Shown piece by piece: positions 5,691-64,000 of a stretch of 64,000 nt of DNA. This stretch comes from an uncultured Spirochaetota bacterium. GTDB lineage: Bacteria > Spirochaetota > UBA4802 > UBA5550. Numbering within the stretch: position 1 is the first letter of the stretch; the number at the start of each line of letters is the position of its first letter. The DNA is taken from positions 761,571 to 825,570 of the forward strand of contig CAVSZF010000007.1 of assembly GCA_963732395.1 (NCBI GenBank), read 5' to 3'. The position numbers and the translations under genes were made by a program. The notes under the pieces are model-generated. The model searched no databases, was not told the origin of the DNA, and saw only the letters and a program-made list of their open reading frames with translations.

Positions 5691-5704
5691 ACGGGTCCCT
5701 GCTG

Positions 5705-8728: not shown

Positions 8729-8821
8729 TGTGGCATAGGCAGGCCACATGAAAAATTCTTGCGGATTATCCCCTGCCGGATTATGATCTTCACCGACCAC
8801 TTTAATAGTTGAGGGGCGGGA

Positions 8822-18466: not shown

Positions 18467-18467
18467 G

Positions 18468-18842: not shown

Positions 18843-19144
18843 TGACCGCCCTCCCGGGACCGATCGATCGACTTTATCTCCCCTTCGAGCTTCGAGACCT
18901 TACGATCGAGCATGAAGAGAAAAAGGGCGATTCCGGACCATATAAACAGGATAACCCCCGCGACCAGGTAGAGCGAGGATGGATCGCATTCGCCGGGTAA
19001 CGGTCCGCGTTCCTTCGCGTGGGGTTTTTCCGCATTGAGTAATGTCTTGCGCAGGGGCGTCATGTCTGCCGTGAAAGAGGCCGTGCCCCAGGGGGCAACA
19101 AGGGCCAGGGAGAGAAGGATGGCTCTAATCGTACGCATGATCAT
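18839..19144 (-). CDS. ccmD: Small membrane protein, possible CcmD (heme exporter protein D)
   Basis: 101 aa with a signal/TM segment, a second TM (LYLVAGVILFIWSGIALFLFML) and a charged tail. Sits in the ccmC-ccmE slot. Longer than typical CcmD, hence low confidence. Confidence 0.4.
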   Translation of the reverse strand: MIMRTIRAILLSLALVAPWGTASFTADMTPLRKTLLNAEKPHAKERGPLPGECDPSSLYLVAGVILFIWSGIALFLFMLDRKVSKLEGEIKSIDRSREGGQ

Positions 19145-19871
19145 GTTCCTCGATTGATCTTTTCAATGCGGTAATTCTGTTCATAAGCTGAAGGAGAAAG
19201 GCATAGAGTGTGGTAAAGGCGACGAGAGCGGTGCTGAGGGCCGTTAGCATGAGCCCGTCCATTTGGATCTTGCGTTCGGTGTTGATTATTGTATCGGGAT
19301 GGAGCGAATCGGTAATGCGTGGCACGAGAAAAATAAAAAAAGGTACGGTCATCATCGCTACCACCAGGTATGATGAGCCAATGCTCGCCCTGCCGGGACC
19401 GTCGGGAAGGGCGCCCCGAAGGCAAAAATAGGCGATATAAATGAGAAGGATGAAGACAATTGAGGTCTGGCGCGGGTCCCAGTTCCAGAAGGAGCCCCAG
19501 CTCAGTCTGGCCCAAAGAGATCCGCTGATTACGCTAAAGATAGTGAAGGCCAGACCCACCGCAGCCGAGTTGGCGGCCCGGTCGGCGAGGTGCAGGCTTT
19601 CTTTTTTCCAGCCCGTGAGATGGACAATCGAGAGGAAGCCGGATACGGAAAAGGCAAGGACCGATACCCAGGCGAGGGGGACGTGGAAAAAGACAATACG
19701 ACTGTAGTCGCCAAGGATCTCGGCGGACGGAGCGAGAAAAAACGCCATGATAATCGTGACCGGCATCAGCAGGTACACGCTTCGTGTGATGACCCTTGTA
19801 ATTTTCATGTACGCAACAGTGTATGTAAAATATAAGCCGCCGTGATGCTCCTGCGGGACGGGCGGAGGCAT
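19125..19871 (-). CDS. ccmC: Heme exporter protein CcmC
   Basis: 248 aa polytopic membrane protein with WWD motif WGSFWNWDPRQTSIVFILL. Confidence 0.85.
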   Translation of the reverse strand: MPPPVPQEHHGGLYFTYTVAYMKITRVITRSVYLLMPVTIIMAFFLAPSAEILGDYSRIVFFHVPLAWVSVLAFSVSGFLSIVHLTGWKKESLHLADRAANSAAVGLAFTIFSVISGSLWARLSWGSFWNWDPRQTSIVFILLIYIAYFCLRGALPDGPGRASIGSSYLVVAMMTVPFFIFLVPRITDSLHPDTIINTERKIQMDGLMLTALSTALVAFTTLYAFLLQLMNRITALKRSIEEHDHAYD

Positions 19872-20636
19872 TTATTCATCGGTCCATACGAACCTGAACA
19901 GTAAGAAGGATATAACCGTAATAAAACCGGAAAAAGCAAGCAAAAAAACCGGCCCACTCCCTTGGGGGGGCATCGCTTCAAGCGTTGCGGATGTGAAAGA
20001 GATCGAGACCCAGAGCACGGGGAGGAGTACGGGAAACGATAGAATGGTAAATAGAGATCCCCTGCCTCCCGATTTAGCGACCATGGCTGCGAGAATGGTC
20101 GTGGTGGCGGCAATGGCTGCGCCACCGGAGAAGAGAACGGCGGCGAATTGACCGACATGGCGCGGGGCCATCCCGACAAAAAAGATAAAGAGGGGGGCGA
20201 CGATGATGAGGACCAGAGCCATGAAGGCCTGGTTGTAAATGAATTTTGAAATGAAAATCGAATCCACCGGTACGGTGACGCGTAAGAAGAGGGCTGTGCC
20301 CTGGTCAGTTTCCCTGACGAAAATATGGGAGAGGCCGTTCATGGCGCTAAAAAAAACAATTACCCAGAGAAGGATAGATTGCGCCAGCGGTGGGAAGGGA
20401 ATACCGCCCGCGGTCAGGCCTATGGCGGTGGTGACGATGATGGCGAAGGCGGCGGATACGTTCAGGGCGAATCGGCTTCTTAATTCGACCCGGGCGTCCT
20501 TTATGAGATTGCGGAGAACGTCATGAACCAAGACGAAGGCCTCCCGAGCAGAGTCCTTCTTCCGCGGGATCGTTTGTCGCAATGATGATGATCTTTCCCG
20601 ACCGCGAGGAATTGATATAGTCACCGAGGGCTTCAT
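19872..20636 (-). CDS. ccmB: Heme exporter permease CcmB
   Basis: Six-TM ABC-2-type permease in the ccmA-ccmC slot. The ATG at 20636 overlaps ccmA by 116 bp. An in-frame TTG at 20531 would reduce the overlap to 11 bp. The start is therefore uncertain. Confidence 0.75.
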   Translation of the reverse strand: MKPSVTISIPRGRERSSSLRQTIPRKKDSAREAFVLVHDVLRNLIKDARVELRSRFALNVSAAFAIIVTTAIGLTAGGIPFPPLAQSILLWVIVFFSAMNGLSHIFVRETDQGTALFLRVTVPVDSIFISKFIYNQAFMALVLIIVAPLFIFFVGMAPRHVGQFAAVLFSGGAAIAATTTILAAMVAKSGGRGSLFTILSFPVLLPVLWVSISFTSATLEAMPPQGSGPVFLLAFSGFITVISFLLFRFVWTDE

Positions 20637-27313: not shown

Positions 27314-27772
27314 ATGAGCAACTATGACCGATACTCGATATACCTGGTGAGGTCAGTTAGCCATATATTCAAGCATTTCCTTGATGATGTATCAGTGGAG
27401 GAAGTGTACGAATCCCAGTCGGAGGAAAAGGATCCGCTGGTGTCTGTAGAGATCGCCGGCACGATGGTCGGCGAGATCATCATCAATCTTCCGAAGAAAA
27501 CCCTCGACCAGATCACCATGAAATTCATAAACTCGAAGGACATCAGGGCGATCCGCAAGAGCCACGGAGACGTGGCCGGTGAACTGGCCAACCTGATCAC
27601 CGGAACCTTCGCGAATCAGATGCAGTACATGGCGCATGATATAAGGCTCAACGCCCCGGAATTCAATGACGATGCGATCGGGATGAAAACCCTTTATGAG
27701 AACATTAACCTTTCGTTCAACTCGAAATATGGTGGTTTCGACATTGATTTTTATTACAAAGAAAAGCACTGA
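27314..27772 (+). CDS. CheX/CheC-family chemotaxis phosphatase-like protein
   Basis: 152 aa. The GELANLITGTFAN block matches the conserved E..N...G active-site motif of CheX. No other che genes nearby. Confidence 0.6.
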   Translation: MSNYDRYSIYLVRSVSHIFKHFLDDVSVEEVYESQSEEKDPLVSVEIAGTMVGEIIINLPKKTLDQITMKFINSKDIRAIRKSHGDVAGELANLITGTFANQMQYMAHDIRLNAPEFNDDAIGMKTLYENINLSFNSKYGGFDIDFYYKEKH

Positions 27773-42902: not shown

Positions 42903-43643
42903 ATGAAGGAGAACATGGTGGTTAAACTCGTCTATATCATTTATGGCGAATTGTCAGAACCCGCGTCCTCTTTCAGCGATCGTGTTCTACGGGGGCTGGT
43001 GCCACGTCTTCTCGGGCAAGATCCGTCTCGCCTAAAAATCTCAATGACGGCGATGAATCCTCCCCTATTCTCCGTAATACCATACAGGCGTAAGCGGATT
43101 GCCCTTATCTCGCTATGGATCGGGGAAGGGGTTGGTCAGACCGTCGAGGGATGGTCACGACTCGTCGCCGGGGCGTGGGGGGGAGGGTGCTTTGGATATC
43201 GCGTAGAAGAATCAAGGCCCGTAGCCTATAAGCGGTCATGGCCGGATTTTACACGAACACCGGGCCTTGGATTGCTCACCCTTTTCAGGCCGCGGCGCGG
43301 CATCGCTCATGAAGAATTCATCAGAAGATGGCACCATGGCCATACCCCACTTGCCCTGAGGATTCATCCACTCTGGAATTATGTAAGGAACGTGGTGAGG
43401 GAGTGCATTATTCCGGGTTCACCGTCTTTTGCCGGGATCGTGGAGGAACAGTGCCGGGCCGTAGAGGAGATTTTAAAGCCGACACGCTTCTTCGGGGGGT
43501 TGCTTCCCATGCTACCCAACATGATCCGCATCGCCCTGGACATACGTAAATGGATGGATTTTCGAAGTATTGAGAACCACCTCGTGCACGAGTACTGGAT
43601 CCGCGACATCACCCATGCCCCGGAAAGCCCCTTTGATCTATGA
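42903..43643 (+). CDS. Hypothetical protein (246 aa)
   Basis: ORF with no recognisable motif. An alternative start at ATG 42915 has a better AAGGAG RBS. Confidence 0.55.
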   Translation: MKENMVVKLVYIIYGELSEPASSFSDRVLRGLVPRLLGQDPSRLKISMTAMNPPLFSVIPYRRKRIALISLWIGEGVGQTVEGWSRLVAGAWGGGCFGYRVEESRPVAYKRSWPDFTRTPGLGLLTLFRPRRGIAHEEFIRRWHHGHTPLALRIHPLWNYVRNVVRECIIPGSPSFAGIVEEQCRAVEEILKPTRFFGGLLPMLPNMIRIALDIRKWMDFRSIENHLVHEYWIRDITHAPESPFDL

Positions 43644-43908
43644 AAGGCCGGTAGGCAAATCCGCGTGGAATGATTTTTCGGCCACTTCTAGGAAAAGTTT
43701 AAAATTGCTTGTTTTTTTTCCGGTGATGGGATAATCATAATACTATTGCTTTTCCCCTGTGGTTCAGTGTGGGGCGATTTCGGGCCACTGAAGTGGAATA
43801 CCTCTGCTATCGAGCGTTTTTACCGGGGTAAAGATAGAAAAACCCCGGGTGTCGTGCATTGCATGAGGGATGTGTCGTGTTGAAACCAATGAAACGGGTG
43901 TGGTGCTT

Positions 43909-44232
43909 ATGGATATAAAATTGAGGACGCGGGGAGATCACCGGATCGTTGAAATTGACGGTGATATTGATTACTTCAGCATCAGCGAATTGAAGAACAA
44001 CATCTTCGCTCTGATCAACGATAAGGCACGGAGTATAATACTCGACCTTAAAGACGTGGAATACATGGATTCCTCGGGAATCGGGCTGATTGTAACCGCC
44101 TACAAGGTAATGAACGGTTATGGCGGAAAAATTGCCCTCCTGCACGTTCATGAGGATATCCTGGCGCTTCTCAGACTCGCCACAGTGGACACTATCATGA
44201 AAATTTTCGACAGTGAAAACGATATTAAATGA
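43909..44232 (+). CDS. STAS-domain anti-sigma factor antagonist (SpoIIAA/RsbV-like)
   Basis: About 107 aa. The YMDSSGIGLIV block contains the conserved phosphorylatable Ser context (DSSG). Start set at MDIKLRT. Confidence 0.75.
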   Translation: MDIKLRTRGDHRIVEIDGDIDYFSISELKNNIFALINDKARSIILDLKDVEYMDSSGIGLIVTAYKVMNGYGGKIALLHVHEDILALLRLATVDTIMKIFDSENDIK

Positions 44233-44446
44233 AAAAGGCCCCATGATCGATGAGCACAAATACAGAGCATGGCGCGTCTGTTGATTTGCTATTTCCGGTA
44301 CTCTTTCCGACCGGATGGCGTCGTGCGGTTTATTCACTGAATGCCTCACGCAGGAAAAAGCGCAGACCTTCCAGGCCGCGAAGAGTAATCGCGGAAAAAC
44401 AACTTCATGAAGCACCTGCGCGAAGATAAGCCTGCCGCAAGGGGAT

Positions 44447-47230
44447 ATGATGAAGCTCAAGTATAAACTGGCGATGATGTTTGTATTGATTATCCTCTTC
44501 GCGGCACTTCCGCTCTCCTTCTTCGTACTCAGAAAGCAGGAACAGGAAAAACTGAATTCGATCATGCAAAAGGGATCGGTTTTCACCACGATACTGGCCC
44601 AATCGGTCCTGAATATAATACTTGCAAACGGCGGAGATGTCAGGGCGACGCAGATAGATGCGAAGGAAATGATGTCAGTCCTTGAAACTCTGGAGGATGA
44701 GGGCCTGGTCTATGCGGATGCACTGCTTGTATCCTCAAAAGAAAGATATAACGGAATCGTGATGGCGTCGTTTCATACGGTGGATGTCGATTTTCCCGGT
44801 TTCGAGAGAGGGGGGCGCATTTCCCACGACGAGATTGCGCGCCTCATCGTACAGAAAACAAGCAGGGAAATCACAAAGCCCCGGACCGGAGAAATATTTT
44901 ATGAGTTTGTCGCGACGGGAAACCCGGCCGGCAGAAAGCCCCTGTGCGTGGCAAGGTTGGTTTTTTCGAAATCGGTCATCCTGGCGCCAATAAATAAATT
45001 GCATCGCATGATTTACGGAGCGACGGCAGGCGCGATCATACTCGCGGGGATACTGGGACTGCTTTTCAGCCGCATCATCTCGACGCCCATCGGCGAGCTT
45101 ACGGATGCGGCGATTAGAATCGAGGAAGGGGATCTCGGACAGCGTATAGCCGTACGGTCCCATGACGAAATCGGGCGTCTTTCCCAGACCTTCAACCATA
45201 TGCTGGTGATGATTAACCAGAAGATAGAAGAGCTCGAAGGAAGCAACCGCCGGCTCCTGCAGATGGACAGCCTCAAGGACGAGTTCATCGCGAATATATC
45301 ACATGAATTGCGAACCCCCCTCTCGGGCATCATCGGCATAACCGATTCTCTCATCCTGGGGGCCACTGGTGACCTCGGCAATGACACCATCCATGATCTC
45401 GGGCTCATATCCGCGAGCGGAAAACGTCTCGCCGCGCTCATAAACGACATAATTGATTTTTCAAAACTGAGGCATCATGATATTATCCTGAACATGGAAC
45501 CCGTCGATATGCATGATGCGGTTCAGCTCATCATTTCCATAACGCGGCCACTCTACAGCGGAAAGTCCGTTACGGTGGAAAATCGGATCACACCGGGGGC
45601 CGCTGTGGTGAAAGGAGACGAGGACAGGATACAGCAGGTCATGCTCAACCTCCTGAGCAACGCGATAAAGTTTACAGAACGGGGAAGCATCGTCATAACG
45701 GCCCGTGCTTACGAGGGGAAACGGGGCATGGTGGCGGTAACGGTCGCCGATACCGGTATCGGTATCGCAAAGGAAGACATGGAGCGCATATTCAAATCCT
45801 TTGAACAGGTCGACGGATCTGCGTCCCGATCAAGGGGTGGCACCGGTCTCGGGCTTGCGATAACCAGGAAGTTGGTCGAACTGCATGGCGGAAAGATCTG
45901 GGTGGAATCAAGCCCCGAAAGGGGATCACGTTTTACCTTTACGTGCTTCGCCTATACCGACCCGCTTCCGGTTGCGGGTATCGCAGGATGGAAAGAAGAC
46001 ACGCTGCCGAAGATGATCTATGCCGAGACCGGTGAAGTGCGAAGGGCCGAAACGGTCGGGAGCGTTCGGACAGGGCAAAAAAAAAGGATCATGGTGGTGG
46101 ACGACGAGCCTGTGAATCTCCAGGTCATCATCAACCATCTGACCCTCGAGGGGTATGAGGTCATGACCGCGGATAGCGGGGATGGACTTTTCGCGGCGCT
46201 GGAAAAGGGTGAAATGCCGGACCTGGTGCTTCTGGATGTCATGCTTCCCAGGATGTCTGGATACGATGTGTGTAAAAAGGTGAGGGAGCGCCACCCGCCC
46301 CACGAGCTTCCGATAATCATGATAACGGCAAGGAGCAACAGGGGGGATATCGTAAGCGGTATTTCAGCAGGGGCCAACGATTACATTACCAAGCCGGTGA
46401 ACATTGATGAAATGATGGCGCGCGTGGAAGGTCTGATTCTGATGAAGGAATCTGCCGCGGTGAAAAGTAAATACCTGGTTATGGAAAACGAGCTCGAAAT
46501 CGCCCGGGATATACAGAAAGCCCTCATCCCGAGGGTCCCTCCCGGCGCGAAAAATATCCTCTTTGCCGTGCGCTGTGAGACCTCGACGCACGTGGGGGGA
46601 GATTATTACGACTTTCACGTGATTCGCGACACCAAAATCGGCGTACTGGTGGCAGACGTAGCGGGCCATGGTGTTCCCGCAGCCATGGTCGCGGCGATGA
46701 TGCAGGTGGCCTATACCTTTTATAAAACGGAGTTTGATGACCAATCGATGCTTTTTGAAAAAATCAACACGATCATGGAGCAATATCCACACGGGCTGTT
46801 TCTCACGGCCTGCACCGTGTATATTGATACGGAAAGCAAAAAATTGTATCATTCAAACGCAGGCCATCGGCCCATTATGATATGGCGCGGGAGTGAGGGC
46901 CGGCTGATCTGGGACAAGGTTTACGACCGACCCATCGGGTTATTCCCGGATTCACGTTATTCCATCAACGAGATCGACATCGAATTCGGAGACCGTATCG
47001 TCATGTATACCGATGGAATCATTGAGGCGAGGAACCGTGAAAGAGAGCTTTTTGGAGAGGAGAGGCTTGGCGAACTCGCCCGGGAATTTCGGGATGTCGA
47101 TTGCGAGGCATTCGCCAGCAGGGTAGTCGAAACGGTCAGGAAATGGGCCGGCGTTCGGGAGGGTGAAACGATGGCTGATGACATAACCCTCCTTGTGATG
47201 GACATCGTTCCTGACCGTACCGGGGTCTGA
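44447..47230 (+). CDS. Hybrid sensor histidine kinase / response-regulator receiver / PP2C (SpoIIE-RsbU-type) phosphatase
   Basis: 927 aa. N-terminal TM plus periplasmic region. HAMP. HisKA (ISHELRTPLSGI). HATPase_c (GTGLGLAI). REC domain (MVVDDEPVNLQ...DLVLLDVMLP). C-terminal PP2C/SpoIIE block (GGDYYDF, VADVAGHG). Confidence 0.85.
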   Translation: MMKLKYKLAMMFVLIILFAALPLSFFVLRKQEQEKLNSIMQKGSVFTTILAQSVLNIILANGGDVRATQIDAKEMMSVLETLEDEGLVYADALLVSSKERYNGIVMASFHTVDVDFPGFERGGRISHDEIARLIVQKTSREITKPRTGEIFYEFVATGNPAGRKPLCVARLVFSKSVILAPINKLHRMIYGATAGAIILAGILGLLFSRIISTPIGELTDAAIRIEEGDLGQRIAVRSHDEIGRLSQTFNHMLVMINQKIEELEGSNRRLLQMDSLKDEFIANISHELRTPLSGIIGITDSLILGATGDLGNDTIHDLGLISASGKRLAALINDIIDFSKLRHHDIILNMEPVDMHDAVQLIISITRPLYSGKSVTVENRITPGAAVVKGDEDRIQQVMLNLLSNAIKFTERGSIVITARAYEGKRGMVAVTVADTGIGIAKEDMERIFKSFEQVDGSASRSRGGTGLGLAITRKLVELHGGKIWVESSPERGSRFTFTCFAYTDPLPVAGIAGWKEDTLPKMIYAETGEVRRAETVGSVRTGQKKRIMVVDDEPVNLQVIINHLTLEGYEVMTADSGDGLFAALEKGEMPDLVLLDVMLPRMSGYDVCKKVRERHPPHELPIIMITARSNRGDIVSGISAGANDYITKPVNIDEMMARVEGLILMKESAAVKSKYLVMENELEIARDIQKALIPRVPPGAKNILFAVRCETSTHVGGDYYDFHVIRDTKIGVLVADVAGHGVPAAMVAAMMQVAYTFYKTEFDDQSMLFEKINTIMEQYPHGLFLTACTVYIDTESKKLYHSNAGHRPIMIWRGSEGRLIWDKVYDRPIGLFPDSRYSINEIDIEFGDRIVMYTDGIIEARNRERELFGEERLGELAREFRDVDCEAFASRVVETVRKWAGVREGETMADDITLLVMDIVPDRTGV

Positions 47231-47241
47231 TCGGCCGCGGA

Positions 47242-48729
47242 TTATACGGGAACGGGAAATCGAATCGAGAACTGGGTCCCGTTTTTGTCGGACTGGATGT
47301 CGACGGAAGCGTTATGATCTTTCAATATTTTGCTGGATATCGAAAGTCCGATGCCGGTGCCATGATCGCGTTTCTTCGTGGTGAAAAAGGGAGACCATAT
47401 CTTGTGCATGATCGTGTCGGAAATACCGCTTCCGTTATCGGCTATGACCATCGACACGTTGTCATCTGATGAAAATGTAGAGATTCTGACCGTCCCGTTT
47501 TCCTCAATGGACTCGAAGCCCTTCTCCATTATCGCGTCTTTCGAGTTAAGTATGATATTCACGATCAATTGCTCGATGGATATCTTGTCGCCATATATCT
47601 TCGGTATGGCCTCGTCGAGAACGAACATGAGATCGATGCTGTTTTTCTTCAACTGCAGATTGATCAAATCTATCGCCTCAAGAATGACCTTGTTCAGGTC
47701 GATCAAATTTTTCCCCGTAGTTCTCTTTTTTGAGAAGTTTCTGATATGGTTGATGATGTTCGACGACTTGTCGACGAGGGCGCAGATTCGCATCAGTTCG
47801 GAAACGGCCTGAAGATTTTCGAATTCCTCCATGTTGATATCGTCGATCATGTTCTGTGCGATGCCCTTGATCCCCGTCAGTGGCTGGGATAGCTCATGGG
47901 CGATTCCGGTGGTAAGTTCGGCCAGGCTCGCGTGACGCGCCATCTGATAGAGTTCCAGGTCCTTCTCGAGAATTATTCGACGGCTTGATTCGATGCTTTT
48001 CTTCATACGGGAAATGCGCTGATTCAGGGTGTTGTTGAGCTCGTTGACCGCCTTGAAATGGACAAGCAGCCCCGATATCCTGTTGCGGAGACCGTAACCG
48101 AGGAGGAGCGAGAGTATGATGCTCATGGCACCTGCCGAGTAAAGATAATGCACGGGACCAAGAACGGTGAAGGCGACAATGACATAGAGCATTATGAGGA
48201 TGATAGCCGCCATGAGCAGTGTCGTGACGGGATCCCTCCAGGCGGGAGAGACAGTGTAAAGCATGGATGCGTAGAGGACGAGATGAAGGACGAGGAGAAT
48301 AGGGGCCTGAAGCCGGGGGAAAAGGGCCCAGAGCGGTAGGGAGAGTAGGGAAAGCACATAGACGGGTACTGATGCGTTTCTGCCGTAATGGGCGTAGTGG
48401 TGACGGACCATCAGCGACGAGGTGACGGGGTAGAGAGAGAGTCCGATGGCCGTCAGGGTCGGGAAACCGGATACATCGGCCGAAGAGAGGTGTGCGAAAA
48501 AATAGGGTGCGGTCGCGAGAAGGACGGAGCTTGAATTGAGAATGATTCGTTTGGAGAGGGCGATGAAAAAAAACATGGCGCCCAGCGCCGTAAGAATGAA
48601 CATCGTGTAAAAAAGGAAATGGATGGCGGCAGTATGTACGCTGTCCATAGCGGCCCCGGGGACGGCGATGTGTGCGAAGTAATGGGCCGGCATCAATAGT
48701 GCAGTCAGGTTATCCTCCCGTATATCCAC
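47242..48729 (-). CDS. Sensor histidine kinase with polytopic (7TM-like) N-terminal sensor
   Basis: About 7 predicted TM helices. HisKA (AHELSQPLTGIKGIAQNM). HATPase_c (DNGSGI...GTGIGLSI). Convergent with the hybrid kinase. The two stops are 11 bp apart. Confidence 0.85.
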   Translation of the reverse strand: MDIREDNLTALLMPAHYFAHIAVPGAAMDSVHTAAIHFLFYTMFILTALGAMFFFIALSKRIILNSSSVLLATAPYFFAHLSSADVSGFPTLTAIGLSLYPVTSSLMVRHHYAHYGRNASVPVYVLSLLSLPLWALFPRLQAPILLVLHLVLYASMLYTVSPAWRDPVTTLLMAAIILIMLYVIVAFTVLGPVHYLYSAGAMSIILSLLLGYGLRNRISGLLVHFKAVNELNNTLNQRISRMKKSIESSRRIILEKDLELYQMARHASLAELTTGIAHELSQPLTGIKGIAQNMIDDINMEEFENLQAVSELMRICALVDKSSNIINHIRNFSKKRTTGKNLIDLNKVILEAIDLINLQLKKNSIDLMFVLDEAIPKIYGDKISIEQLIVNIILNSKDAIMEKGFESIEENGTVRISTFSSDDNVSMVIADNGSGISDTIMHKIWSPFFTTKKRDHGTGIGLSISSKILKDHNASVDIQSDKNGTQFSIRFPVPV

Positions 48730-48796
48730 ATCGAAATACCCGCGGCGTACGCAGGGGTAGACCGTAGATTATTACTCATATCGCAGATAACTTCAA

Positions 48797-48825
48797 TTGA
48801 CATTAGAGCAAAAAAAAATTACCAT
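48797..48825 (+). promoter_or_regulatory. Candidate sigma70-like promoter for ychF
   Basis: TTGACA at 48797-48802, 17-bp spacer, TACCAT at 48820-48825. Confidence 0.35.
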
Positions 48826-48900
48826 GTCAACGTTAATTCATATTTCTGTTGACCCCTTTACGCGTACGGCGACTTGCGGGTCGGTCAGGAGGAGCCTGTC

Positions 48901-49986
48901 ATGGAATTCAGATGCGGGATAATAGGCCTGCCCAATGTGGGGAAATCCACGATTTTCAACGCCCTCTCCGGCGCGGGTGCCCAGATGGCGAATTATCCTT
49001 TCTGCACTATCGAGCCGAACAGGGGGATCGTACCTGTCCCGGACGACCGGCTTGCGAAAATAGGGGAATTTTTGCACAAGGAGCACCCGATACCCGCCAG
49101 GATCGAATTCATCGATGTCGCAGGCCTCGTGGCCGGGGCATCGAAGGGCGAAGGTCTGGGGAACAGATTTCTCGGTCACATACGCAACGTGGAGGCGTTG
49201 ATACATGTCGTTCGGTGCTTTTCTGATGAAAACGTGGTGCATGTCACTGGAGAGCCGGACCCGGTCCGTGATATCGGCATAATAAACACGGAACTGGCCC
49301 TGGCGGACATGGAGGTGCTGGACCGTGCCCGGGAGAAGGAGCTGAAGCTTGCAAAAAGCGGGGATAAAAGGGCGGGGATGAAGGCGGAGGCCATAGGCGG
49401 GATCATTGCCCATCTTGACCGGGGTGATGCGCTCAGGTCCCTTCCCCTTAATGATGAGGAGCGTGAATTTGTATCGGAATACGGGGTGATCACGAACAAG
49501 CCGGTTATCTATGTTGCGAACGCGGACGAGGGGGGCGGCTCCCGGGAGGCCCTTGACGCGGTTGCCGGGTACGCCGAGGCACAGGGGGCGGGGTATATGC
49601 GAATCGTTGGAACGATCGAGGAGGAGATTTCAAGGCTTCCGGCGGGTGAGAAGCAGGAGTACCTCGAGGCAATGGGCCTTTCCGAGTCGGGGCTCGACCG
49701 ACTCGTACGTTCGGCCTACCGGATCCTGGAACTGATCACCTACTATACCGCTGCGACAGAACTCCAGGCGTGGACCCTCAAAAGCGGCACGACTGCTGAG
49801 CGCGCTGCTGGAAAGATCCACACCGATTTCGAAAGGGGTTTTATTCGCGCCGAGGTCTACGGGTATGACGATCTTGTCGATCGAGGCTCGGAGAAGGCGG
49901 TGAGGGAACAGGGACTGTTGCGCTCCGAGGGGCGGGACTACGTGGTGAAGGAGGGGGACATCGTAAAGTATCTCTTTAACGTATGA
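48901..49986 (+). CDS. ychF: Ribosome-binding ATPase YchF (Obg-family)
   Basis: G1 GLPNVGKST. TGS domain at the C-terminus. Start at ATG 48901 after an AGGAGG RBS. The track used an upstream start. Confidence 0.9.
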   Translation: MEFRCGIIGLPNVGKSTIFNALSGAGAQMANYPFCTIEPNRGIVPVPDDRLAKIGEFLHKEHPIPARIEFIDVAGLVAGASKGEGLGNRFLGHIRNVEALIHVVRCFSDENVVHVTGEPDPVRDIGIINTELALADMEVLDRAREKELKLAKSGDKRAGMKAEAIGGIIAHLDRGDALRSLPLNDEEREFVSEYGVITNKPVIYVANADEGGGSREALDAVAGYAEAQGAGYMRIVGTIEEEISRLPAGEKQEYLEAMGLSESGLDRLVRSAYRILELITYYTAATELQAWTLKSGTTAERAAGKIHTDFERGFIRAEVYGYDDLVDRGSEKAVREQGLLRSEGRDYVVKEGDIVKYLFNV

Positions 49987-55753: not shown

Positions 55754-55887
55754 TCAATAAGGGTGTGCGGTCATAATGGACCGACCCTTTACGGGCGCGC
55801 AAGGGGATACTGGACGGCGGCTGCGGGATAATCATGACGGATTGTCCGCACATCCCGCCCGTGGATGGCAAAAGGGGGGACAGGATA

Positions 55888-58782
55888 ATGGCAAAGAGAA
55901 TTCTCATGCCGGGCATATTGCTCCTTGCCTGTACGGTCGGTTTTTCCAATCAGTGGCATGATGAAGCCGATCGATTCTGGAACGAGGGCCAGAAGCTGAA
56001 GAAGGATTTGAAATACAGGGAGGCGATACAATTCCTGCGAAGGGCCGTGGCTGCGGAGATGAAAAACGAGAATCCCCGCGCTGATGAATTAATCGCTCAG
56101 TTCAACGAGCTCGGCATTCTATATGGCATGACAGGTTCCTTCGAGAGCTCTCTGCACTACCACCAGATGACCCTTAAGGCGGCCGAAAAATACGGGAGGG
56201 AAGATGATGAGGTGATGGCGCTCATCAATATCGGAAGGGTCAGCACCAACCTCGGGCGGCACCGGGAAGCCATTGACATCTATGGCCGGGCGCTGGAGAG
56301 GTCCAGGAAGTACGGCTTTGGGGACAAGGAGGTGCGTGTCCTGAACGATATGGCGGGAGCCCTGAGGGCAATGAATGATTTCGAAGGAGCCCTTGCGCGC
56401 TATACCGAAGCCCTCGATGCCGCGAAGAAGGCGGGGGGTGCGGTGCTGGAGGCGGCGATCATCAGCAATATCGGTACGCTCTATTTTTTCAGGGGGGATT
56501 TCGAGACCGCCCTGAAGGAATACGGTAGAGCTCTCGACATCGACAAGTCAAGGGGGGACGACATGGCCCTTTCCATAGGCATGAACAATATGGGAAGCGT
56601 GTATACAGCCATCGGAAAGTATGGGGAGGCCCTCAACTATTTTGAGAAATCGCTGGAAATCGACACCAGGCTGAAGAATGGCATCAACATCGCATCGCGT
56701 TTAAACAGGATAGGGGATATCTACTTCCGTGTCGGAGACGGCGCAAGCGCGATTGCGCATTTTAACCGATCTCTCGAAATCAACAACAGGATCAACAACA
56801 GGATCAACGTGGCGGTGCTGAACGCCAGCATCGGGCGTGTGTACGAGTCGATGGGCAGGTTCGAGGAATCCATTGATTATTACATAAAGGCACTCGCCCT
56901 AAACCGGGAGTTGGAAAAGGAAACCTATGTGGCCGAGCGATTGTCAGATATCGGTCTCCTTTACGAAATGCGTGGAAGGCACGGAGAGGCTGCCGATTAC
57001 TTTGCAAGGGCGCTGGAACGGGGAATCGGCACCGGAGGGAAGGAAAAGACAGCGGCGAACCTGAGCAACCTGGGACGTGTGATGACGGCGTTGAAGCGCT
57101 ATGATGTCGCGCTCGATTATTTTCGGCAGTCCCTGGAAATCTATCGAGAGACGAAGGATTCCATCTCGATTGCCGACGACCTGAAGAATTGCGGGATTGT
57201 CCACTACCATCGGAAGGAGTGGGACCTGGCGATCGACAGCCTTCTACGGGCGAGGGGCTCGATTGAGGGGACGCCCCGGACGATCTATCCGGTCAGGGAC
57301 GAGGTCGAAGGCGAGATGTACCGCTGGCTGGTCGCCGCGTATGTAATGTCTCAGAGACACGAGATGGCATTCGAGGCGAACGAACGGTTCTGCATTAACC
57401 GAATGTACTCGCCAGTTCATACCTGGAAACCGGCAGGGCCGGACCCTGCGGCCGGCTATGACAGGCTCAAGGACCGACTAGGGGCCAGCGGGGCGGCGGT
57501 GGTTTATTCGAATGTCTCCTGGGACGACCCACAGGTTGTCTGTATCAGGCGTGAAGGATCATCGGGCCATGTGCTGGACAAAGCCGCAACGGTGAAAACG
57601 ATATACAACCATTTTGGCCGCGAGATTGAACGCTTCATGGGGGAAAAAAAGACCGATATTATTTTCACAGTAGGACAGAGGTCGCGAAGCGATCATTATT
57701 ACATAGAGTTTGAAAAAATAATCAATTACTACCGGTATCTGGCCTCGAAAAAATATATCGGGAGCGATGAAAAGGATGCTTTGCGTCGCATCGGGAAGGC
57801 CCTCTACGACCTTCTTTTGGGAACAATCGGCCCGGCAATAAAAGGAAAGACGGAACTGATCATTCAGCCGGATGGCGTCCTTTCCACCCTGCCATTTGAA
57901 ACCCTGATCATGCCGGATGGAAGATTTCTCGTCGAGAAGTACATTATAACCTACGTGCACTCCCACACCATAAGCGCAGCCGCGGCGAAAAGAAAATACA
58001 ATGCCGGGAGGAAAGAACTGATGCTGATCGGCGGTGTCACCCATCCGTCAAAATCACTTCCCGGAGTCCTCGAATCGGTCCGGCACTATGAGCTCGTTAA
58101 ACAGAGAGCCGTCGATGCCATCATGAAAGGGAGGGACACCATCGGGCTGTACGGATTTTTCGGTATAGATGACATCGGTGGTCCCGGCGGCGACATAAAG
58201 GAAATCGAGTTACTGGATGGCGCCTGGAAGAACCATGACATACTCAGGGACGAGGACGTCACCGAGGGCGGGATACTGGGCGCCTCTCTCGCGGGGGCCT
58301 TTTCCGGGTACAGGATTCTGCATGTCGCCACGAGATCCGTCGTGGTTCCGGAGGCGCCGATTCTGAGCGCGCTGGTGCTCTCCAGCGAAAAGGGTGTTTC
58401 AGGTGGGAATGGCCTGCTGAATATCAGAAAAATCGCCTCTCTTAAGATAGCGGCCGATCTTGTGACCCTGTCGAACGTATTCCTGCCGCCTGCGCGTTAC
58501 AGCAAGGGGGAGGGAATATGGAGCCTCTGCGGTTCTTTCATGGATGCGGGAGCTCGGAACGTGGCGATATCGATCTGGCCTGTCGAGGGAGCGGTAAAGA
58601 TGGCACTCATAAAGCGGGCGTACCGCCTTGCACTGGAGGAGAAACTGCCCTACTGCAGTGCCTTTGCACGAGCGAAACGCGAGTTCATTACTCAAAAAGC
58701 CGATGACAGTTCCCCGGGTGGGAGTCCGGGGAACTATTCTTCCCCCTATTTCTGGGGATCTTTCATGCTGTATGGATACTAG
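55888..58782 (+). CDS. TPR-repeat / CHAT-domain (caspase-like) lipoprotein
   Basis: Start at MAKRILMPGILLLACT (lipobox). About 12 TPR-like repeats. C-terminal CHAT-like fold (LHVATRS...DLVTLSNVF...SLCGSFMDAGARNVAISIWPV) with the expected His-Gly and Cys positions apparently occupied by Arg-Ser and Asn. Confidence 0.8.
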   Translation: MAKRILMPGILLLACTVGFSNQWHDEADRFWNEGQKLKKDLKYREAIQFLRRAVAAEMKNENPRADELIAQFNELGILYGMTGSFESSLHYHQMTLKAAEKYGREDDEVMALINIGRVSTNLGRHREAIDIYGRALERSRKYGFGDKEVRVLNDMAGALRAMNDFEGALARYTEALDAAKKAGGAVLEAAIISNIGTLYFFRGDFETALKEYGRALDIDKSRGDDMALSIGMNNMGSVYTAIGKYGEALNYFEKSLEIDTRLKNGINIASRLNRIGDIYFRVGDGASAIAHFNRSLEINNRINNRINVAVLNASIGRVYESMGRFEESIDYYIKALALNRELEKETYVAERLSDIGLLYEMRGRHGEAADYFARALERGIGTGGKEKTAANLSNLGRVMTALKRYDVALDYFRQSLEIYRETKDSISIADDLKNCGIVHYHRKEWDLAIDSLLRARGSIEGTPRTIYPVRDEVEGEMYRWLVAAYVMSQRHEMAFEANERFCINRMYSPVHTWKPAGPDPAAGYDRLKDRLGASGAAVVYSNVSWDDPQVVCIRREGSSGHVLDKAATVKTIYNHFGREIERFMGEKKTDIIFTVGQRSRSDHYYIEFEKIINYYRYLASKKYIGSDEKDALRRIGKALYDLLLGTIGPAIKGKTELIIQPDGVLSTLPFETLIMPDGRFLVEKYIITYVHSHTISAAAAKRKYNAGRKELMLIGGVTHPSKSLPGVLESVRHYELVKQRAVDAIMKGRDTIGLYGFFGIDDIGGPGGDIKEIELLDGAWKNHDILRDEDVTEGGILGASLAGAFSGYRILHVATRSVVVPEAPILSALVLSSEKGVSGGNGLLNIRKIASLKIAADLVTLSNVFLPPARYSKGEGIWSLCGSFMDAGARNVAISIWPVEGAVKMALIKRAYRLALEEKLPYCSAFARAKREFITQKADDSSPGGSPGNYSSPYFWGSFMLYGY

Positions 58783-58784: not shown

Positions 58785-59306
58785 ATGGACAGGGCAATGA
58801 GAAGGACCGCCCTTGTCGATTCATCATCCGCCATAATTCTTTTCAAAGCGGGTCTCTTCGAATATACGGCGGAGTATTTCCGCATCGTAATCCCCGCCTC
58901 GGTTTTCGAAGAGCTGACAGTCGGGGGGCGCTCGGGGTCGGAGGAATTCGCGCGATACCGTGCGGACGGGAGCATCCAGGTCAGGGATACGGACCCGTTA
59001 TTGACGGTCGAAGGGGATATGGGCGGTCTTGACACAGGGGAGCGGGATACCATCCTCCTTTACGAAGCGGGATCGGGGGAAGTGATACTTCTCGACGACG
59101 GGAAGGGGGCCGCCATCTGCAGGCGCCGCCGCATACCCCATATCAACGCCCTGCTTGTTCCCAGGATATTTCGCCGGGCCGGCACTATCAACGTAGAGGA
59201 ATGCGAGCGACAGATGGCCACCATTATGATCCATGGCAGGTATTCCGATTGGGTGGTCGACTACGCCCGATCATGCCCGGATGACGACCTCGCGGATTTT
59301 GCGTGA
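58785..59306 (+). CDS. PIN-like nuclease-fold protein, DUF3368/COG2405 family
   Basis: N-terminal ALVDSSSAIILFKAG and central GERDTILLYEAGSGEVILLDDGKGAAICRRRRIPHINAL match the DUF3368 pattern (D...GE...LLDD). Starts 2 nt after the CHAT stop. Confidence 0.65.
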   Translation: MDRAMRRTALVDSSSAIILFKAGLFEYTAEYFRIVIPASVFEELTVGGRSGSEEFARYRADGSIQVRDTDPLLTVEGDMGGLDTGERDTILLYEAGSGEVILLDDGKGAAICRRRRIPHINALLVPRIFRRAGTINVEECERQMATIMIHGRYSDWVVDYARSCPDDDLADFA

Positions 59307-59327: not shown

Positions 59328-61625
59328 TTATACGGCCTGAATGATCTCCGGGTGGATCTCACCAATCGACGCGCAGCCTGTCAGGATCATGGCCGTCTCA
59401 ATCTCTTTTTTTAAGTGATTCAGGTAGAAGGAAACACCCTCGGCGCCCATGCCGACCGCGGCGATGGCAATGGGCCTACCGATCAATACGGCGTGCGCTC
59501 CGAAGGCCAACGCTTTCAGAATGTCCACACCCTCACGAAATCCGCCATCGACAAGAATTATCAGGTCGTCCTTCACTTCTCTCGCGATCTCTCCGAGTAC
59601 GTCCATTGATCCCATCATTTCATCGAGGACCCGACCGCCGTGGTTTGAAACGATGATGCCCCTTGCCCCGAGACGTGCGGCTGCCTCTGCATCATGGACG
59701 TTCATGATACCTTTTAGAAAGAAGGGGAGGGAAGTCGATGAAATGATGTCCCTGAGATCGGAAAAGCTCTTCGGTCCTACCGATTGATTCTTCATCGCCA
59801 TGGTCTTGAATACCACGGCGTCGATGTCCATGCCGACGGCGAGAGCACCCGCTTCCTCGGCCGCCCTGACGCGGGTGATTATTTCATCATTGTCACTGCG
59901 GGGCTTGAAGATGGGAATGCCCCTGCCCCCGAATTCAGAGATCGCACGAAGGCCGATCCTGTACTTGTCGGGAGTAGCCCCGTCCCCCACAAGGGCCAGG
60001 GTCCCGGCCCGGGAGCAGCCGCCGACAACCGCACGGTTGTAATCGAGTTCGTCGATGGCGCCGCCCATGTTTGTTACGGTTCCCGTGATAGGCGCGGCCA
60101 GAACCGGGAGGGCCAGATTGATATCGAGGAGCGTCGAGGATGTATCGGGTCTGGTGACTTCATGGATGAGGCGTGTCCGAATTTTATATTGCTTGAGGGA
60201 TGCAATATTGCGGCGGAATGACTCGCCGGTACCGGCACCACCCATGCCGGGCACTCCCGTGGGGCAGTCACGACCGTCGCAGTTCTTGCACACATAACAG
60301 ATTTTTTTGAATTTCTCCTTGGCAGAGAAATTGATGGTTTCCAGGGATATCTCCGATTCCTCGATCATGTCGAATTCAAGAATACGACGGCATTCCTCAA
60401 CATGTGCCACCGCCTCATCGAGGGTTTGACCCACGGCAATGATATGACCGGCTTTCTCGACGTTGGAGCGGGGGAGGGAAACTCTGTCTCCCTGCCTGAC
60501 GTTGAGAAAAATTTCCTCTATGCCGGGGACCTTCAGCGCCTCCTCGAGACCGGTGATTTTTCTCACGATGCCGGGTCTTGTGATGATCGCGCGCTCGATG
60601 GCGACACGTTTCATGACCGGCTCAAGATTTCCGGGTTCCTGTCCGAGTGCGACCTCAATGGCCGCCTTCATCAGGTCAACCCCTGTGGAAAGCGGGTACG
60701 TGTAGGCCGACATGAAACCGCCGGAAAGTCGGGCCGCTATTTCGCCTACCATGGGGCCCTTTTCGGTTATCTTGATGTCCCCCTTCGCGGCTCCGATATC
60801 AATTCCGAGGGCCCGAATGCCCTGTTTCATCACCTCGCATGCCGCGGCCTGCACCTCGCGCGGCAGTGCGGAGGGCATGTCGTGCCCCGTTTCAATGAAG
60901 TAGGGGGGATATTCGATAATCCGGTCCGCGATTCCTGTGATGGTAATTTCATTCTGGTATATGATGGCATCGATGGACAGCTCCGCGCCCTCCATGTATT
61001 CTTCCATGATCAGCTCGCCGCTGGGAGAGGCATTTTTGGCGAACTTGAATGCGTCAGGGAGCTGGTTCAGATTATCGACACGCATGACGCCCCGAGCCCC
61101 CATGTTGTCCGATGGCTTGATGACTATGGGAAACTTTAAAATTTTTCCCGCTTTTTTTGCATCGGAAAGCGACCAAACGGGAAGAAAAAGGGGCGATGGT
61201 ACGCCATGCTCTTTCATACGCATTCTCATCTTGATCTTGTTGGTGGCGGCCTCGGCGTCGTCGAACTTTATGCCCGGGAGGTCGAGGGTGTTGGCCACGG
61301 CGGCGACCGCCATGGAGGCGTCGGTCCCGACGGTGAGAACTGCGCTAATGGGTGTAATCTCGTTCTGTTGCCGGGCAGCGCGTACGGAACCCTCAATGTC
61401 GCGGGTACTCATGATGATGGGAATATCGGCGTCCCTGATGCCTAGCACATCCGGGTTATAGTCGCTCACTATGACCTGGTACCCCATCTTTTTCGCAGTG
61501 AGGATCGCGGGAAGCTGGAGAAGCCCGCCGCCGATTATCATGATTGTCTTTTTCAATTCCGGCTCCTCGTCAGGGCGGCCCGACGGCGCGGTGCCTGGGG
61601 GTTGGTGTGCTGCCGTAAAGATCAT
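59328..61625 (-). CDS. Fusion protein: ATP-grasp ligase domain + Cx2Cx2Cx4C linker + FMN-dependent alpha-hydroxy-acid dehydrogenase/oxidase-like TIM barrel
   Basis: N-terminal ATP-grasp (KKMGYQVIVSDYNPD, FPIVIKPSDNMGARG, EEYMEGAELSIDAI). Cys cluster CYVCKNCDGRDC at 60264-60299. C-terminal FMN_dh motifs (IVSNHGGRVLD, ILVDGGFREGVDILKALAFGAHAVLIGRP). An alternative start at 61541 (MIIGGG) is possible. Confidence 0.8.
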   Translation of the reverse strand: MIFTAAHQPPGTAPSGRPDEEPELKKTIMIIGGGLLQLPAILTAKKMGYQVIVSDYNPDVLGIRDADIPIIMSTRDIEGSVRAARQQNEITPISAVLTVGTDASMAVAAVANTLDLPGIKFDDAEAATNKIKMRMRMKEHGVPSPLFLPVWSLSDAKKAGKILKFPIVIKPSDNMGARGVMRVDNLNQLPDAFKFAKNASPSGELIMEEYMEGAELSIDAIIYQNEITITGIADRIIEYPPYFIETGHDMPSALPREVQAAACEVMKQGIRALGIDIGAAKGDIKITEKGPMVGEIAARLSGGFMSAYTYPLSTGVDLMKAAIEVALGQEPGNLEPVMKRVAIERAIITRPGIVRKITGLEEALKVPGIEEIFLNVRQGDRVSLPRSNVEKAGHIIAVGQTLDEAVAHVEECRRILEFDMIEESEISLETINFSAKEKFKKICYVCKNCDGRDCPTGVPGMGGAGTGESFRRNIASLKQYKIRTRLIHEVTRPDTSSTLLDINLALPVLAAPITGTVTNMGGAIDELDYNRAVVGGCSRAGTLALVGDGATPDKYRIGLRAISEFGGRGIPIFKPRSDNDEIITRVRAAEEAGALAVGMDIDAVVFKTMAMKNQSVGPKSFSDLRDIISSTSLPFFLKGIMNVHDAEAAARLGARGIIVSNHGGRVLDEMMGSMDVLGEIAREVKDDLIILVDGGFREGVDILKALAFGAHAVLIGRPIAIAAVGMGAEGVSFYLNHLKKEIETAMILTGCASIGEIHPEIIQAV

Positions 61626-62915: not shown

Positions 62916-64000
62916 ATGGACACGGCAAGGGATCTCCTCGAGTCTGAGGGGTGCTCCCTTCTTCTGCATGATTCTCCCACGGGAGATCTTGTTTTTGACG
63001 TGGTAATCGGAGAGAAGGGAGACATCATCAGGGGCGAACGGGTTCCGCGCGGCAGGGGGATCGCGGGCATGGTGGCCGAGACGTGCGAACACGCCGTTAT
63101 AGACGACGCGCAACAGGACCGGCGTTGGTACGGGAACATCGACAAAAAATATGAGTTTCATACAAGGAATATCCTCTGCGTCCCCATGATAGTACAGGAC
63201 GAACTGGTAGGGGTTCTCGAGATCGTAAACTCGATCGGGAGAGAGCGATACGGCGACGGGGACATCGAGCAGGCGAAATACCTTGCGGGCCAGGCCGCCG
63301 TGGCTATCAACACAAGGAGGCTTCATGATGATCTCACGAACCGGATAGTTGAGATCACCGCGCTCTATGAAGTGGCGCAGTCGATATCCCTGGCGAATCC
63401 CGACGAAAACGTCATCGATGCAATATGCAGGTCCCTGGCAGGTTCGATCAGGGTGCGGAAGGCGTCCATACTCCTCTTCGACGAGGAAAAAAATCGGCTT
63501 CGCATTGAATCCACATGCGGGCTTCCCGAGACGATCCAGGAGGGAGGCGAAGTATCCATAACGGGAAGCATCGCAGGGCACGTTTTCAGGACTGGCGACC
63601 CCCTCATCGTGACCGATATCCGGAAGGAAATACCGGTTGAGCTCAGAGACGGTTATCGGCACTACCTTACCGATTCCTTTCTTTCGGTGCCGATCAGACT
63701 CAAGAACAAAACGGTGGGAGTGATATGCTGTGCTGATAAAATATCCGGCAGAGGATTCGATTCGTACGACCTGAGGATCGTTACGACCGTGAGCAGCCAG
63801 GTTTCGCAGGCGTATGGCAATATGATGGAACAGCGCGAGCAGGAACAGCGCCGGAGGCTCTCACACGAGATCGACGTGGCGGCCGAGATTCAGAGAAAAA
63901 TACTCCACGGCGTCCCGCACGCCGTAGGGCGTCACAGGCTGGCGACATTTAACAAGCCCGCGAAGGTCGTGGGGGGGGATTTTTACGATTATTACCGGAT
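62916..64000 (+). CDS. GAF-domain(s) + PP2C/SpoIIE-type phosphatase (partial, runs off 3' end)
   Basis: Found by manual translation. It is absent from the track because it has no in-window stop. Two GAF-like regions. Then EIDVAAEIQRKILHGVPH...GGDFYDYY matches the PP2C/SpoIIE N-terminal block. The frame is open from 62799, so the start may lie upstream of ATG 62916 at a non-ATG codon. Confidence 0.75.
   Translation, partial: MDTARDLLESEGCSLLLHDSPTGDLVFDVVIGEKGDIIRGERVPRGRGIAGMVAETCEHAVIDDAQQDRRWYGNIDKKYEFHTRNILCVPMIVQDELVGVLEIVNSIGRERYGDGDIEQAKYLAGQAAVAINTRRLHDDLTNRIVEITALYEVAQSISLANPDENVIDAICRSLAGSIRVRKASILLFDEEKNRLRIESTCGLPETIQEGGEVSITGSIAGHVFRTGDPLIVTDIRKEIPVELRDGYRHYLTDSFLSVPIRLKNKTVGVICCADKISGRGFDSYDLRIVTTVSSQVSQAYGNMMEQREQEQRRRLSHEIDVAAEIQRKILHGVPHAVGRHRLATFNKPAKVVGGDFYDYYR

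Follow-up and report, generated by a model that had tools for sequence, protein, structure and literature searches.

A predicted sensor histidine kinase, receiver and RsbU/SpoIIE-type phosphatase fused in one polypeptide and encoded next to a STAS gene in an uncultured Spirochaetota bacterium

Two-component control of PP2C phosphatases that reset STAS domain proteins is known only from split systems, namely RsbK/RsbY of Bacillus cereus, RsfS/RsfR of Mycobacterium smegmatis and the HptB pathway that feeds HsbR of Pseudomonas aeruginosa. In B. cereus, the sensor hybrid histidine kinase (HK) RsbK acts on the REC-PP2C protein RsbY and the latter on the STAS antagonist RsbV (PMC4574943, PMC9912610). 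For M. smegmatis it has been shown biochemically that the HK RsfS phosphorylates the REC-PP2C protein RsfR, which dephosphorylates the phosphorylated STAS protein RsfB (PMC10950880). Partner-switching parts joined in multidomain proteins are already known as well, i.e., SypE, HsbR/CrsR and Rv1364c, and the combination of REC and PP2C domains occurs in RsbY, RsfR and P. aeruginosa RssB. Here, we analyze a stretch of 64 kb (henceforth the window: GenBank assembly GCA_963732395.1, contig CAVSZF010000007.1, positions 761,571 to 825,570) from an uncultured Spirochaetota bacterium, in which a gene for a small STAS protein precedes a gene for a 927-aa protein that unites a membrane sensor, HK, receiver and phosphatase. 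We consider it probable that this protein works as a two-component system in a single chain, with the PP2C domain as output module acting on the adjacent STAS protein. The locus is an uncharacterized fused version of a known signalling scheme rather than a new category, and belongs to a family with many members in metagenomes.

The reading builds on domains, catalytic residues, the sensor fold, a helical linker and recurrent linkage to STAS genes. All Pfam matches of the STAS and the fusion protein lie far above the gathering scores. In the kinase part of the fusion protein, where HisKA scores 55 bits, we found an H-box with His286 (codon 45302-45304) and the ATP-site residues N405, D435, G437, G439 and G469, while the receiver contains the full catalytic set D552, D553, D597, T627 and K649. 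The codons of His286, N405, D435, G437, G439, the receiver set, STAS Ser55 and the PP2C residues named below were checked directly. The best NCBIfam matches of the HK-REC part are HrmK, BarA, TorS and LuxQ, and generic hybrid HKs share 41-47% identity with it over the aligned part, about half of the query. H-box, N, G1 and G2 boxes and the residues of the tethered receiver identify the protein as a HisKA-class hybrid sensor HK, for which autophosphorylation and phosphotransfer are predicted. At the C-terminus, residues 728-919 match Pfam PF07228 (SpoIIE) with 151 bits (cut-off 25) over profile positions 2-190 of 192. The motifs GGDYYD (D719), ADVAGHG (D737, G740-H741-G742), YTDG (D856) and DDIT (D911, D912) are present, and all four have counterparts in the alignment with Rv1364c and the phosphatase domain of RssB (3es2). 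From established knowledge of SpoIIE/RsbX structures we take D719, D737, D856, D911 and D912 to be the metal ligands. Profile and motifs together make this domain a PF07228 phosphatase of the RsbU/SpoIIE type with predicted activity on phosphoserine. When the protein was aligned with 59 full-length homologues of the same architecture, N405, D435, G437 and G439 of the ATP site, the five receiver residues and all of the PP2C residues just named (D719, D737, G740-H741-G742, D856, D911 and D912) proved to be invariant in 60 out of 60 sequences.

A full-length AlphaFold2 (AF2) model of the protein has a mean pLDDT of 78. It shows one unbroken helix leading from the receiver into the phosphatase, and the REC, linker and PP2C portions are collinear with P. 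aeruginosa RssB (3eq2) across 316 residues. A crossing-helix linker has been described as a signal route into PPM phosphatases (PMC12143880). Between kinase and receiver, the model has a disordered tether, as is the case in hybrid kinases, and mean identity in this segment is merely 11-19% across the family. No Pfam family, Cache included, matches the sensor domain (residues 29-188). Its 160 residues between the hydrophobic segments, modelled using 27 homologues, reached a pLDDT of 87.6 and fold into a five-stranded alpha/beta core preceded by a long helix. The best Foldseek matches are the extracellular domain of WalK/YycG, KinD, CqsR, LuxQ and DctB (probability 0.99-1.00, TM-score at most 0.66), and the periplasmic domain of Chlamydia RsbU (6mab) is also among the matches. 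Judged by the model, the sensor has a PDC/single-Cache fold, an assignment that applies at the fold level only.

The STAS protein scores 75.5 bits against the Pfam profile and 80.4 bits against NCBIfam TIGR00377 (anti-sigma factor antagonist; cut-off 53.45). Since it stays below the cut-off of the SpoIIAA equivalog profile (66.8 versus 114.75), it is not a SpoIIAA orthologue proper. The reading frame is open from 43870 to 44232, and the start at 43909 is backed by six orthologues with a common length of 107 aa. Ser55 (codon 44071-44073), located in the motif YMDSSGIG, aligns with the DS[SA]G serine of SpoIIAA (1th8) and TM1442 (1sbo) and is, by established knowledge of such proteins, presumably the residue that is phosphorylated. 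This serine is unchanged across nine linked STAS proteins, and the DS[SA]G motif is kept in most STAS proteins linked to fusion genes of the family. Profile and serine place the protein in the RsbV/SpoIIAA group; binding to a kinase and phosphorylation are putative.

The link between the two genes recurs across the family. We compared gene-called loci and 23 metagenome loci, the latter retrieved by a pattern scan derived from a nine-sequence sensor alignment, with the aid of home-made hidden Markov models. Loci with at least 53% identity were counted as the window's clade, while identity in the other clades amounts to 38-48%. Of 23 distinct loci of the family, 18 have one to three STAS genes adjoining the fusion gene, and the arrangements number at least four. 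Within the window's clade, the order is STAS gene, fusion gene, convergent orphan kinase gene and ychF, and the gene for the 107-aa STAS protein is present at each of the ten distinct loci for which the upstream flank is available. In the other clades, one to three STAS genes occur in the flank at 8 of 13 distinct loci, with two or three of them downstream, two upstream, or one in divergent orientation. At locus L081 an rRNA operon (16S, two tRNAs, 23S; 4277-9342) lies immediately upstream of the STAS gene, and gene-free gaps of similar size precede it at L087 and L089. The equivalent position in the window is taken by two genes, a porin-like one for 333 aa and one for 246 aa. As the STAS gene is retained although its upstream context switches to an rRNA operon, it travels with the fusion gene. 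The 333-aa and 246-aa genes themselves were considered as parts of the locus and dropped; their conservation does not extend beyond L082, the nearest relative, and they are unrelated to the gene of about 355 aa found elsewhere in the family.

The coordinates of the features are collected in Table 1. The start codon of the fusion gene is directly preceded by AAGGGGA, which resembles a Shine-Dalgarno sequence. In the spacer between the two genes, neither a terminator-like site on the plus strand nor a strong promoter match was found by a promoter/terminator scan, which returned 11 promoter-like sites for the region 43500-49000 (5.2 expected) and none of these within the spacer. Over six orthologous loci the spacer is unconserved and its length varies between 122 and 214 bp. 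An RNA element at this place was dropped as a candidate because the sequence is unconserved and has no Rfam match. The original prediction, which had been made from the sequence of the window alone, placed a STAS protein with the DSSG serine 215 bp upstream of a 927-aa fusion of membrane sensor, HAMP, HisKA/HATPase, REC and SpoIIE/RsbU domains. This anatomy is borne out by the reading frames, Ser55, the Pfam domains and two hydrophobic segments, with the spacing corrected to 214 bp. The receiver aspartate and the metal-binding aspartates, for which a domain search had been recommended, are all in place; neither a lack of the latter nor the absence of the STAS serine on alignment, either of which was to count against the proposal, was observed. 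The convergent kinase gene ending 11 bp away and the lack of RsbW-like kinase and sigma factor genes in the window were likewise correctly described, and the functional link between phosphatase and STAS neighbour that had been drawn from a single locus is supported by the recurrence of STAS genes across the family.

Table 1. Features of the STAS-phosphatase locus and its convergent neighbour (positions refer to the window)
Feature	Position	Strand	Basis
STAS-only protein, RsbV/SpoIIAA type, 107 aa	43909..44232	+	Pfam STAS 3.3e-21, TIGR00377
Spacer between STAS gene and phosphatase gene, 214 bp	44233..44446	.	Between the two reading frames
Sensor HK-REC-PP2C fusion gene, 927 aa	44447..47230	+	Five Pfam domains, AF2 model
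Transmembrane segment 1 (TM1, aa 10-28), PDC/single-Cache-like sensor (aa 29-188), TM2 (aa 189-207)	44474..45067	+	Hydropathy, AF2, Foldseek
HAMP, aa 206-256	45062..45214	+	Pfam PF00672, 8e-16
HK core: HisKA/DHp aa 277-342, HATPase_c aa 390-499	45275..45943	+	Pfam
Flexible kinase-receiver tether, aa 503-546	45953..46084	+	AF2 pLDDT <50
REC, aa 548-661, phospho-acceptor Asp597 (codon 46235-46237)	46088..46429	+	Pfam Response_reg 4e-29
Unbroken 41-residue helix, aa 653-693, from REC alpha-5 into PP2C	46403..46525	+	AF2 secondary structure
PP2C/PPM domain, RsbU/SpoIIE type, aa 706-920	46562..47206	+	Pfam SpoIIE 5.1e-44
Convergent orphan HK, about seven TM segments, HisKA and HATPase_c, open reading frame of 495 aa	47242..48729	-	Pfam, hydropathy

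According to the scheme that we favour, the periplasmic PDC/Cache-like domain would sense some ligand or partner protein, and TM2 together with HAMP would carry the signal to the dimeric HisKA/HATPase_c core. The core would set the phosphorylation of Asp597, by transfer in cis from His286 and/or by a HisKA-type phosphatase activity directed at the phosphorylated receiver (REC~P). Because the HK-REC unit is homologous to ordinary hybrid kinases, transfer in cis can be regarded as the ancestral design. The receiver would then control the C-terminal RsbU/SpoIIE-type phosphatase via the continuous helix formed by alpha-5 and linker, the route that has been proposed for PPM dimers controlled by REC, GAF, PAS or RsbT. 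The sign of this control is unpredictable and could go in either direction, given that phosphotransfer from RsbK is described as activating RsbY (PMC9912610) whereas phosphorylation of the receiver lowers the phosphatase activity of RsfR (PMC10950880). The phosphatase would dephosphorylate Ser55 of the STAS protein, whose gene directly precedes its own, and unphosphorylated STAS protein would engage a partner with its gene at another place in the genome, either an RsbW-like kinase/anti-sigma factor or some other target.

Several points weigh against this interpretation. The phosphotransfer steps are all deduced, as are the substrate of the phosphatase and the direction of its regulation. Neither HATPase_c_2 nor Sigma70 domains were detected in the 53 open reading frames of the window (greedy non-overlapping set, at least 90 aa; Pfam, E ≤ 0.001), and no recurrent RsbW-type kinase or sigma factor emerged in the flanks of some 20 to 23 related loci, for which the Pfam lists of the called genes were used along with a pooled Pfam scan of 77 flanking reading frames; the latter, evaluated for the 25 commonest families, rules out a recurrent RsbW-like neighbour, not a single occurrence. 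As no serine kinase was found in the window or recurring at related loci, phosphorylation of the STAS protein is an assumption. Because no RsbW-like kinase or sigma factor is encoded with the STAS gene, the locus constitutes, within the window, only the phosphatase and antagonist half of a partner-switching module. Furthermore, five of the 23 family loci have no STAS gene in the flank examined. Finally, the phospho-acceptor histidine, which is kept in the window protein and present in 56 of the 60 aligned proteins, is missing in five otherwise intact orthologues from two sub-clades that are under purifying selection. Position 286 is Arg in the window's nearest relatives (P0001 at L082, and P0002), Leu in P0011 (L081) and Gln both in P0016 (L087) and in the metagenome member L095, which is not part of the 60-sequence alignment. 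P0001 also has Met in place of the Thr at position H+4.

Assembly errors were considered as the cause of these replacements and rejected: the codons seen at this position (CAT for His, and CGT, CAG/CAA and CTG; orthologous loci L082, L081, L087, L094 and L095) are in frame, lie single-nucleotide steps apart and stem from independent samples. For the His-less pair L087 and L095, for which synonymous divergence is unsaturated (dS about 0.55-0.68), the ratio of nonsynonymous to synonymous substitution rates (dN/dS) amounts to 0.066 in the dimerization and histidine phosphotransfer (DHp) domain, 0.084 in the catalytic and ATP-binding (CA) domain, 0.028 in REC and 0.054 in PP2C. Since selection maintains the kinase core even without the histidine, this core must have a task other than autophosphorylation. 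Autophosphorylation in cis is thus dispensable in close relatives, and His-to-Asp transfer in cis is not the sole job of the kinase core in the family. Conservative candidate roles for a His-less core are signal-controlled dephosphorylation of REC and dimeric signal transmission, with another donor supplying the phosphate. The intramolecular phosphorelay put forward by the original prediction is plausible for the window protein with its His286 and cannot, by itself, explain the whole family.

According to one alternative, the main or an additional source of phosphate for Asp597 would be another donor, be it the neighbouring HK, another kinase or acetyl phosphate, and the protein's own core would serve chiefly as a signal-controlled REC~P phosphatase or as a dimeric scaffold. 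HisKA kinases may keep phosphatase activity without their histidine, as is the case for EnvZ H243 variants, and the His-less kinase DivL serves to read out a phosphorylated receiver. Such a division of labour would be in line with the replacement of His286 by Arg, Gln or Leu in independent assemblies, with the invariance of E287, the ATP site, the receiver Asp and the PP2C residues in the His-less orthologues and with the low dN/dS ratios of DHp and CA, which are akin to those of REC and PP2C. One donor candidate is the orphan HK encoded convergently, with its stop codon 11 bp (47231-47241) from the end of the fusion gene. It has seven hydrophobic segments within residues 44-210, as judged by hydropathy only, probably starts at M28 (48648) according to its orthologues, retains an intact His278 (codon 47896-47898) and is near-invariant in DHp and CA across six orthologues. 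Its gene is found at nine of nine distinct window-clade loci with a downstream flank, all His-less ones included. The only REC domain that Pfam detects among the reading frames of the window is that of the 927-aa protein, and the neighbour is without a response regulator of its own there. However, synteny in the window's clade extends over the entire block that follows (ychF, steroid dehydrogenase, nitroreductase, DnaJ and LexA), so that retention of the neighbour may simply reflect vertical inheritance, and no such HK accompanies the fusion genes of the other clades. Moreover, its H-box is NtrB/AtoS-like (HELSQPL; best NCBIfam match AtoS), whereas the fused receiver groups with those of hybrid kinases, and conservation of its DHp domain greatly exceeds that of the fused REC domain, which better fits a highly conserved partner encoded elsewhere. 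The window protein, finally, keeps His286, and we regard input in trans as unlikely.

The lack of a recurrent RsbW-type gene near some 23 family loci, in spite of the STAS genes there, could also mean that no separate RsbW is needed. The protein's own HATPase_c domain would then serve as the serine kinase for Ser55, and REC would toggle between kinase and PP2C modes. This would amount to a SypE-like kinase/phosphatase switch with a membrane sensor, built from an HK, and would explain both the missing RsbW and the ATP site that stays invariant, with CA under purifying selection, in orthologues without the histidine. SypE has an identical domain order, kinase-REC-PP2C (PMC12826045, PMC8256260), and HsbR likewise joins REC, PP2C and a GHKL kinase (PMC6482189). 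Against this stand the score of the domain as a canonical HisKA-associated HATPase_c (116 bits; no match to the RsbW-type HATPase_c_2 in the fusion protein at E ≤ 0.01) and the conservation of the histidine within a complete H-box in 56 of 60 family members. Besides, spirochaete genomes, for example those of Leptospira, commonly have unlinked RsbW-like genes, and a HisKA-type kinase is not known to phosphorylate a STAS serine. We regard such a switch as very improbable. A target other than the STAS neighbour, which would owe its position to inherited gene order, is also improbable. RsbU/SpoIIE-type phosphatases with non-STAS substrates exist, not every family locus has an adjoining STAS gene, and the unconserved spacer might contain a separate promoter. 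Yet several independent arrangements, with STAS genes upstream, divergent or in two to three copies downstream, are seen across clades that share just 38-48% identity, the STAS gene of the window's clade stays with the fusion gene even below an rRNA operon, and characterized members of the RsbU/SpoIIE sub-family dephosphorylate STAS proteins (PMC9239204). We retain the reading in which a single-chain two-component system acts on the adjacent STAS protein.

The fusion is not rare. Of the 120 top-ranking clusters (90% identity), 60 show the order HAMP-HisKA-HATPase_c-REC-SpoIIE and another 14 have HisKA-HATPase_c-REC-SpoIIE following 7TMR-DISM or Y_Y_Y/propeller sensors, such that at least 74 contain HK-REC-PP2C fusions. 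When representatives at 50% identity were searched exhaustively with HMMER, the best 150 included 33 that match over the full length and 70 more that are collinear from DHp to the end of PP2C with differing N-termini, i.e., a collinear fusion is present in at least 103 clusters. Three sensor types and several phyla are represented, and most source-named members of the HAMP-type clusters are Spirochaetes/Spirochaetota metagenome-assembled genomes (MAGs). Public labels such as 'SpoIIE family protein phosphatase' or 'histidine kinase/serine phosphatase RsbU' already exist for these proteins. A scan of genome contigs with the whole protein was dominated by generic kinase motifs (HGGKIWVE) and returned mostly ordinary hybrid kinases. 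It also returned a true fusion of the same five domains in a Thioploca MAG (L001) and split versions at L020 and L070; the split form seen in a Poribacteria MAG comprises three proteins, namely a hybrid kinase, a REC-only protein and a REC-PP2C protein. Full-text literature searches, which had partial coverage, yielded no paper that describes or tests a fused HK-REC-PP2C protein. Separate proteins, taken by the original prediction as the norm in partner switching, are not the rule throughout, as SypE, HsbR/CrsR and Rv1364c attest.

Practical weight of the locus is modest, given that the family is common in metagenomes and already annotated automatically and that its logic is familiar. Nevertheless, fusion fixes the stoichiometry of sensor, kinase, receiver and phosphatase in one chain, which makes the protein a compact model for studying the route by which receiver phosphorylation acts, via a helical linker, on a PPM phosphatase. 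In a little-studied group of uncultured Spirochaetota-like bacteria, it would further make it possible to relate the input signal to the response of the STAS protein. The His-less orthologues constitute a natural experiment on an HK core that is unable to autophosphorylate. We consider the conservation of the kinase core independently of its histidine, together with the consistent absence of RsbW, the most unusual aspect of the family.

Further observations concern the surroundings of the fusion genes. In most loci of the distant clades, a conserved gene for about 355-376 aa is located 4-40 bp upstream of the fusion gene (L083 8869-9996, L084 8908-9990, L085 8933-9997, L090 4918-5991 and L091 4863-5993; also L104, L106-L111 and L114); it is absent from the window and its clade. 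Pfam gives only a weak OMP_b-brl and a faint TPR match, and the product may be a periplasmic or outer-membrane co-sensor. At the Thioploca locus, a periplasmic solute-binding protein (SBP_bac_11) takes its place. About 6 kb from the fusion gene of L085 (2644-4210, minus strand), a 296-aa protein with a weak HATPase_c match is encoded beside a 180-aa protein with a weak DUF4325 match, and similar reading frames occur at L107 (2791-4248, minus strand). This pair, the sole small GHKL-type neighbour that we noticed, is confined to one distant clade and not recurrent. Another kinase-PP2C fusion in these genomes, a 1708-aa protein with Pkinase, AAA_16, GAF and SpoIIE domains, is encoded near a distant family member at L084 (2608-7734, minus strand).

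Other genes of the window were noted in passing. On the plus strand, a stand-alone Hpt protein of 148 aa (15803-16249; Pfam Hpt 1.9e-12), encoded 28 kb upstream of the locus, could join hybrid kinases to other receivers, and a CheX-like phosphatase (Pfam CheX 2.6e-8) is encoded at 27314-27772. A reading frame with two GAF domains that is cut by the end of the window (62916-63998, plus strand) matches the family model weakly (22 bits) and might represent a kinase linked to GAF domains or else a further phosphatase of the RsbU type. The gene for a TPR-CHAT protease-like protein of 982 aa (55834-58782, plus strand) is followed by a 173-aa reading frame without Pfam match (58785-59306, plus strand). 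A DUF3368 protein is encoded in the CHAT part of the locus in L081 and L088, and adjoins the CHAT gene in L081; this region may be a conflict or regulatory-protease module. The minus strand carries an unusual fusion of an ATP-grasp ligase (ATP-grasp_4, LAL_C2) with an FMN-dependent dehydrogenase (FMN_dh; 765 aa in total, 59328-61625), also found in L089, and a cytochrome c maturation cluster (CcmF, CcmD_alt, CcmC-like and CcmB; 16274-20636) that represents housekeeping context.

Compared with the systems outlined at the outset, the locus is closest in logic to RsbK/RsbY/RsbV and RsfS/RsfR/RsfB. Both differ from it in that kinase and REC-PP2C phosphatase are two separate proteins, whereas here kinase, receiver and phosphatase reside in one polypeptide. 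In B. cereus, rsbV, rsbW and sigB are found in the same cluster, unlike the window locus with no RsbW or sigma factor gene nearby, and RsbK has a CHASE3/GAF sensor in place of a periplasmic PDC/Cache-like one. Vibrio fischeri SypE resembles the fusion protein in that kinase, REC and PP2C are combined in one polypeptide, which is encoded together with its STAS target SypA and acts without a sigma factor (PMC12826045, PMC8256260). However, SypE is cytoplasmic, its kinase is an RsbW-like serine kinase lacking DHp, and it receives phosphate from outside, while the window protein contains HisKA and HATPase_c behind a membrane sensor; having no HATPase_c_2 match, it is not SypE-like. In P. aeruginosa HsbR/HsbA and Shewanella CrsR/CrsA, a REC-controlled PP2C acts on an adjoining STAS protein and the output is not confined to one sigma factor (PMC6482189), but the order in HsbR is REC-PP2C-GHKL serine kinase, HisKA is lacking, and phosphate arrives from hybrid kinases via HptB. 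P. aeruginosa RssB (3eq2, 3f7a, 3es2) is the best match of solved structure to the REC-linker-PP2C part, and its crossing helical linker provides a model for PPM control (PMC12143880), although RssB itself is a stand-alone response regulator without kinase or sensor. Chlamydia trachomatis RsbU is a transmembrane PP2C with a periplasmic Cache-like sensor that acts on RsbV-type STAS proteins (PMC11619594); there, the sensor is coupled straight to the phosphatase, whereas in the window protein a complete kinase-receiver module is inserted between the two.

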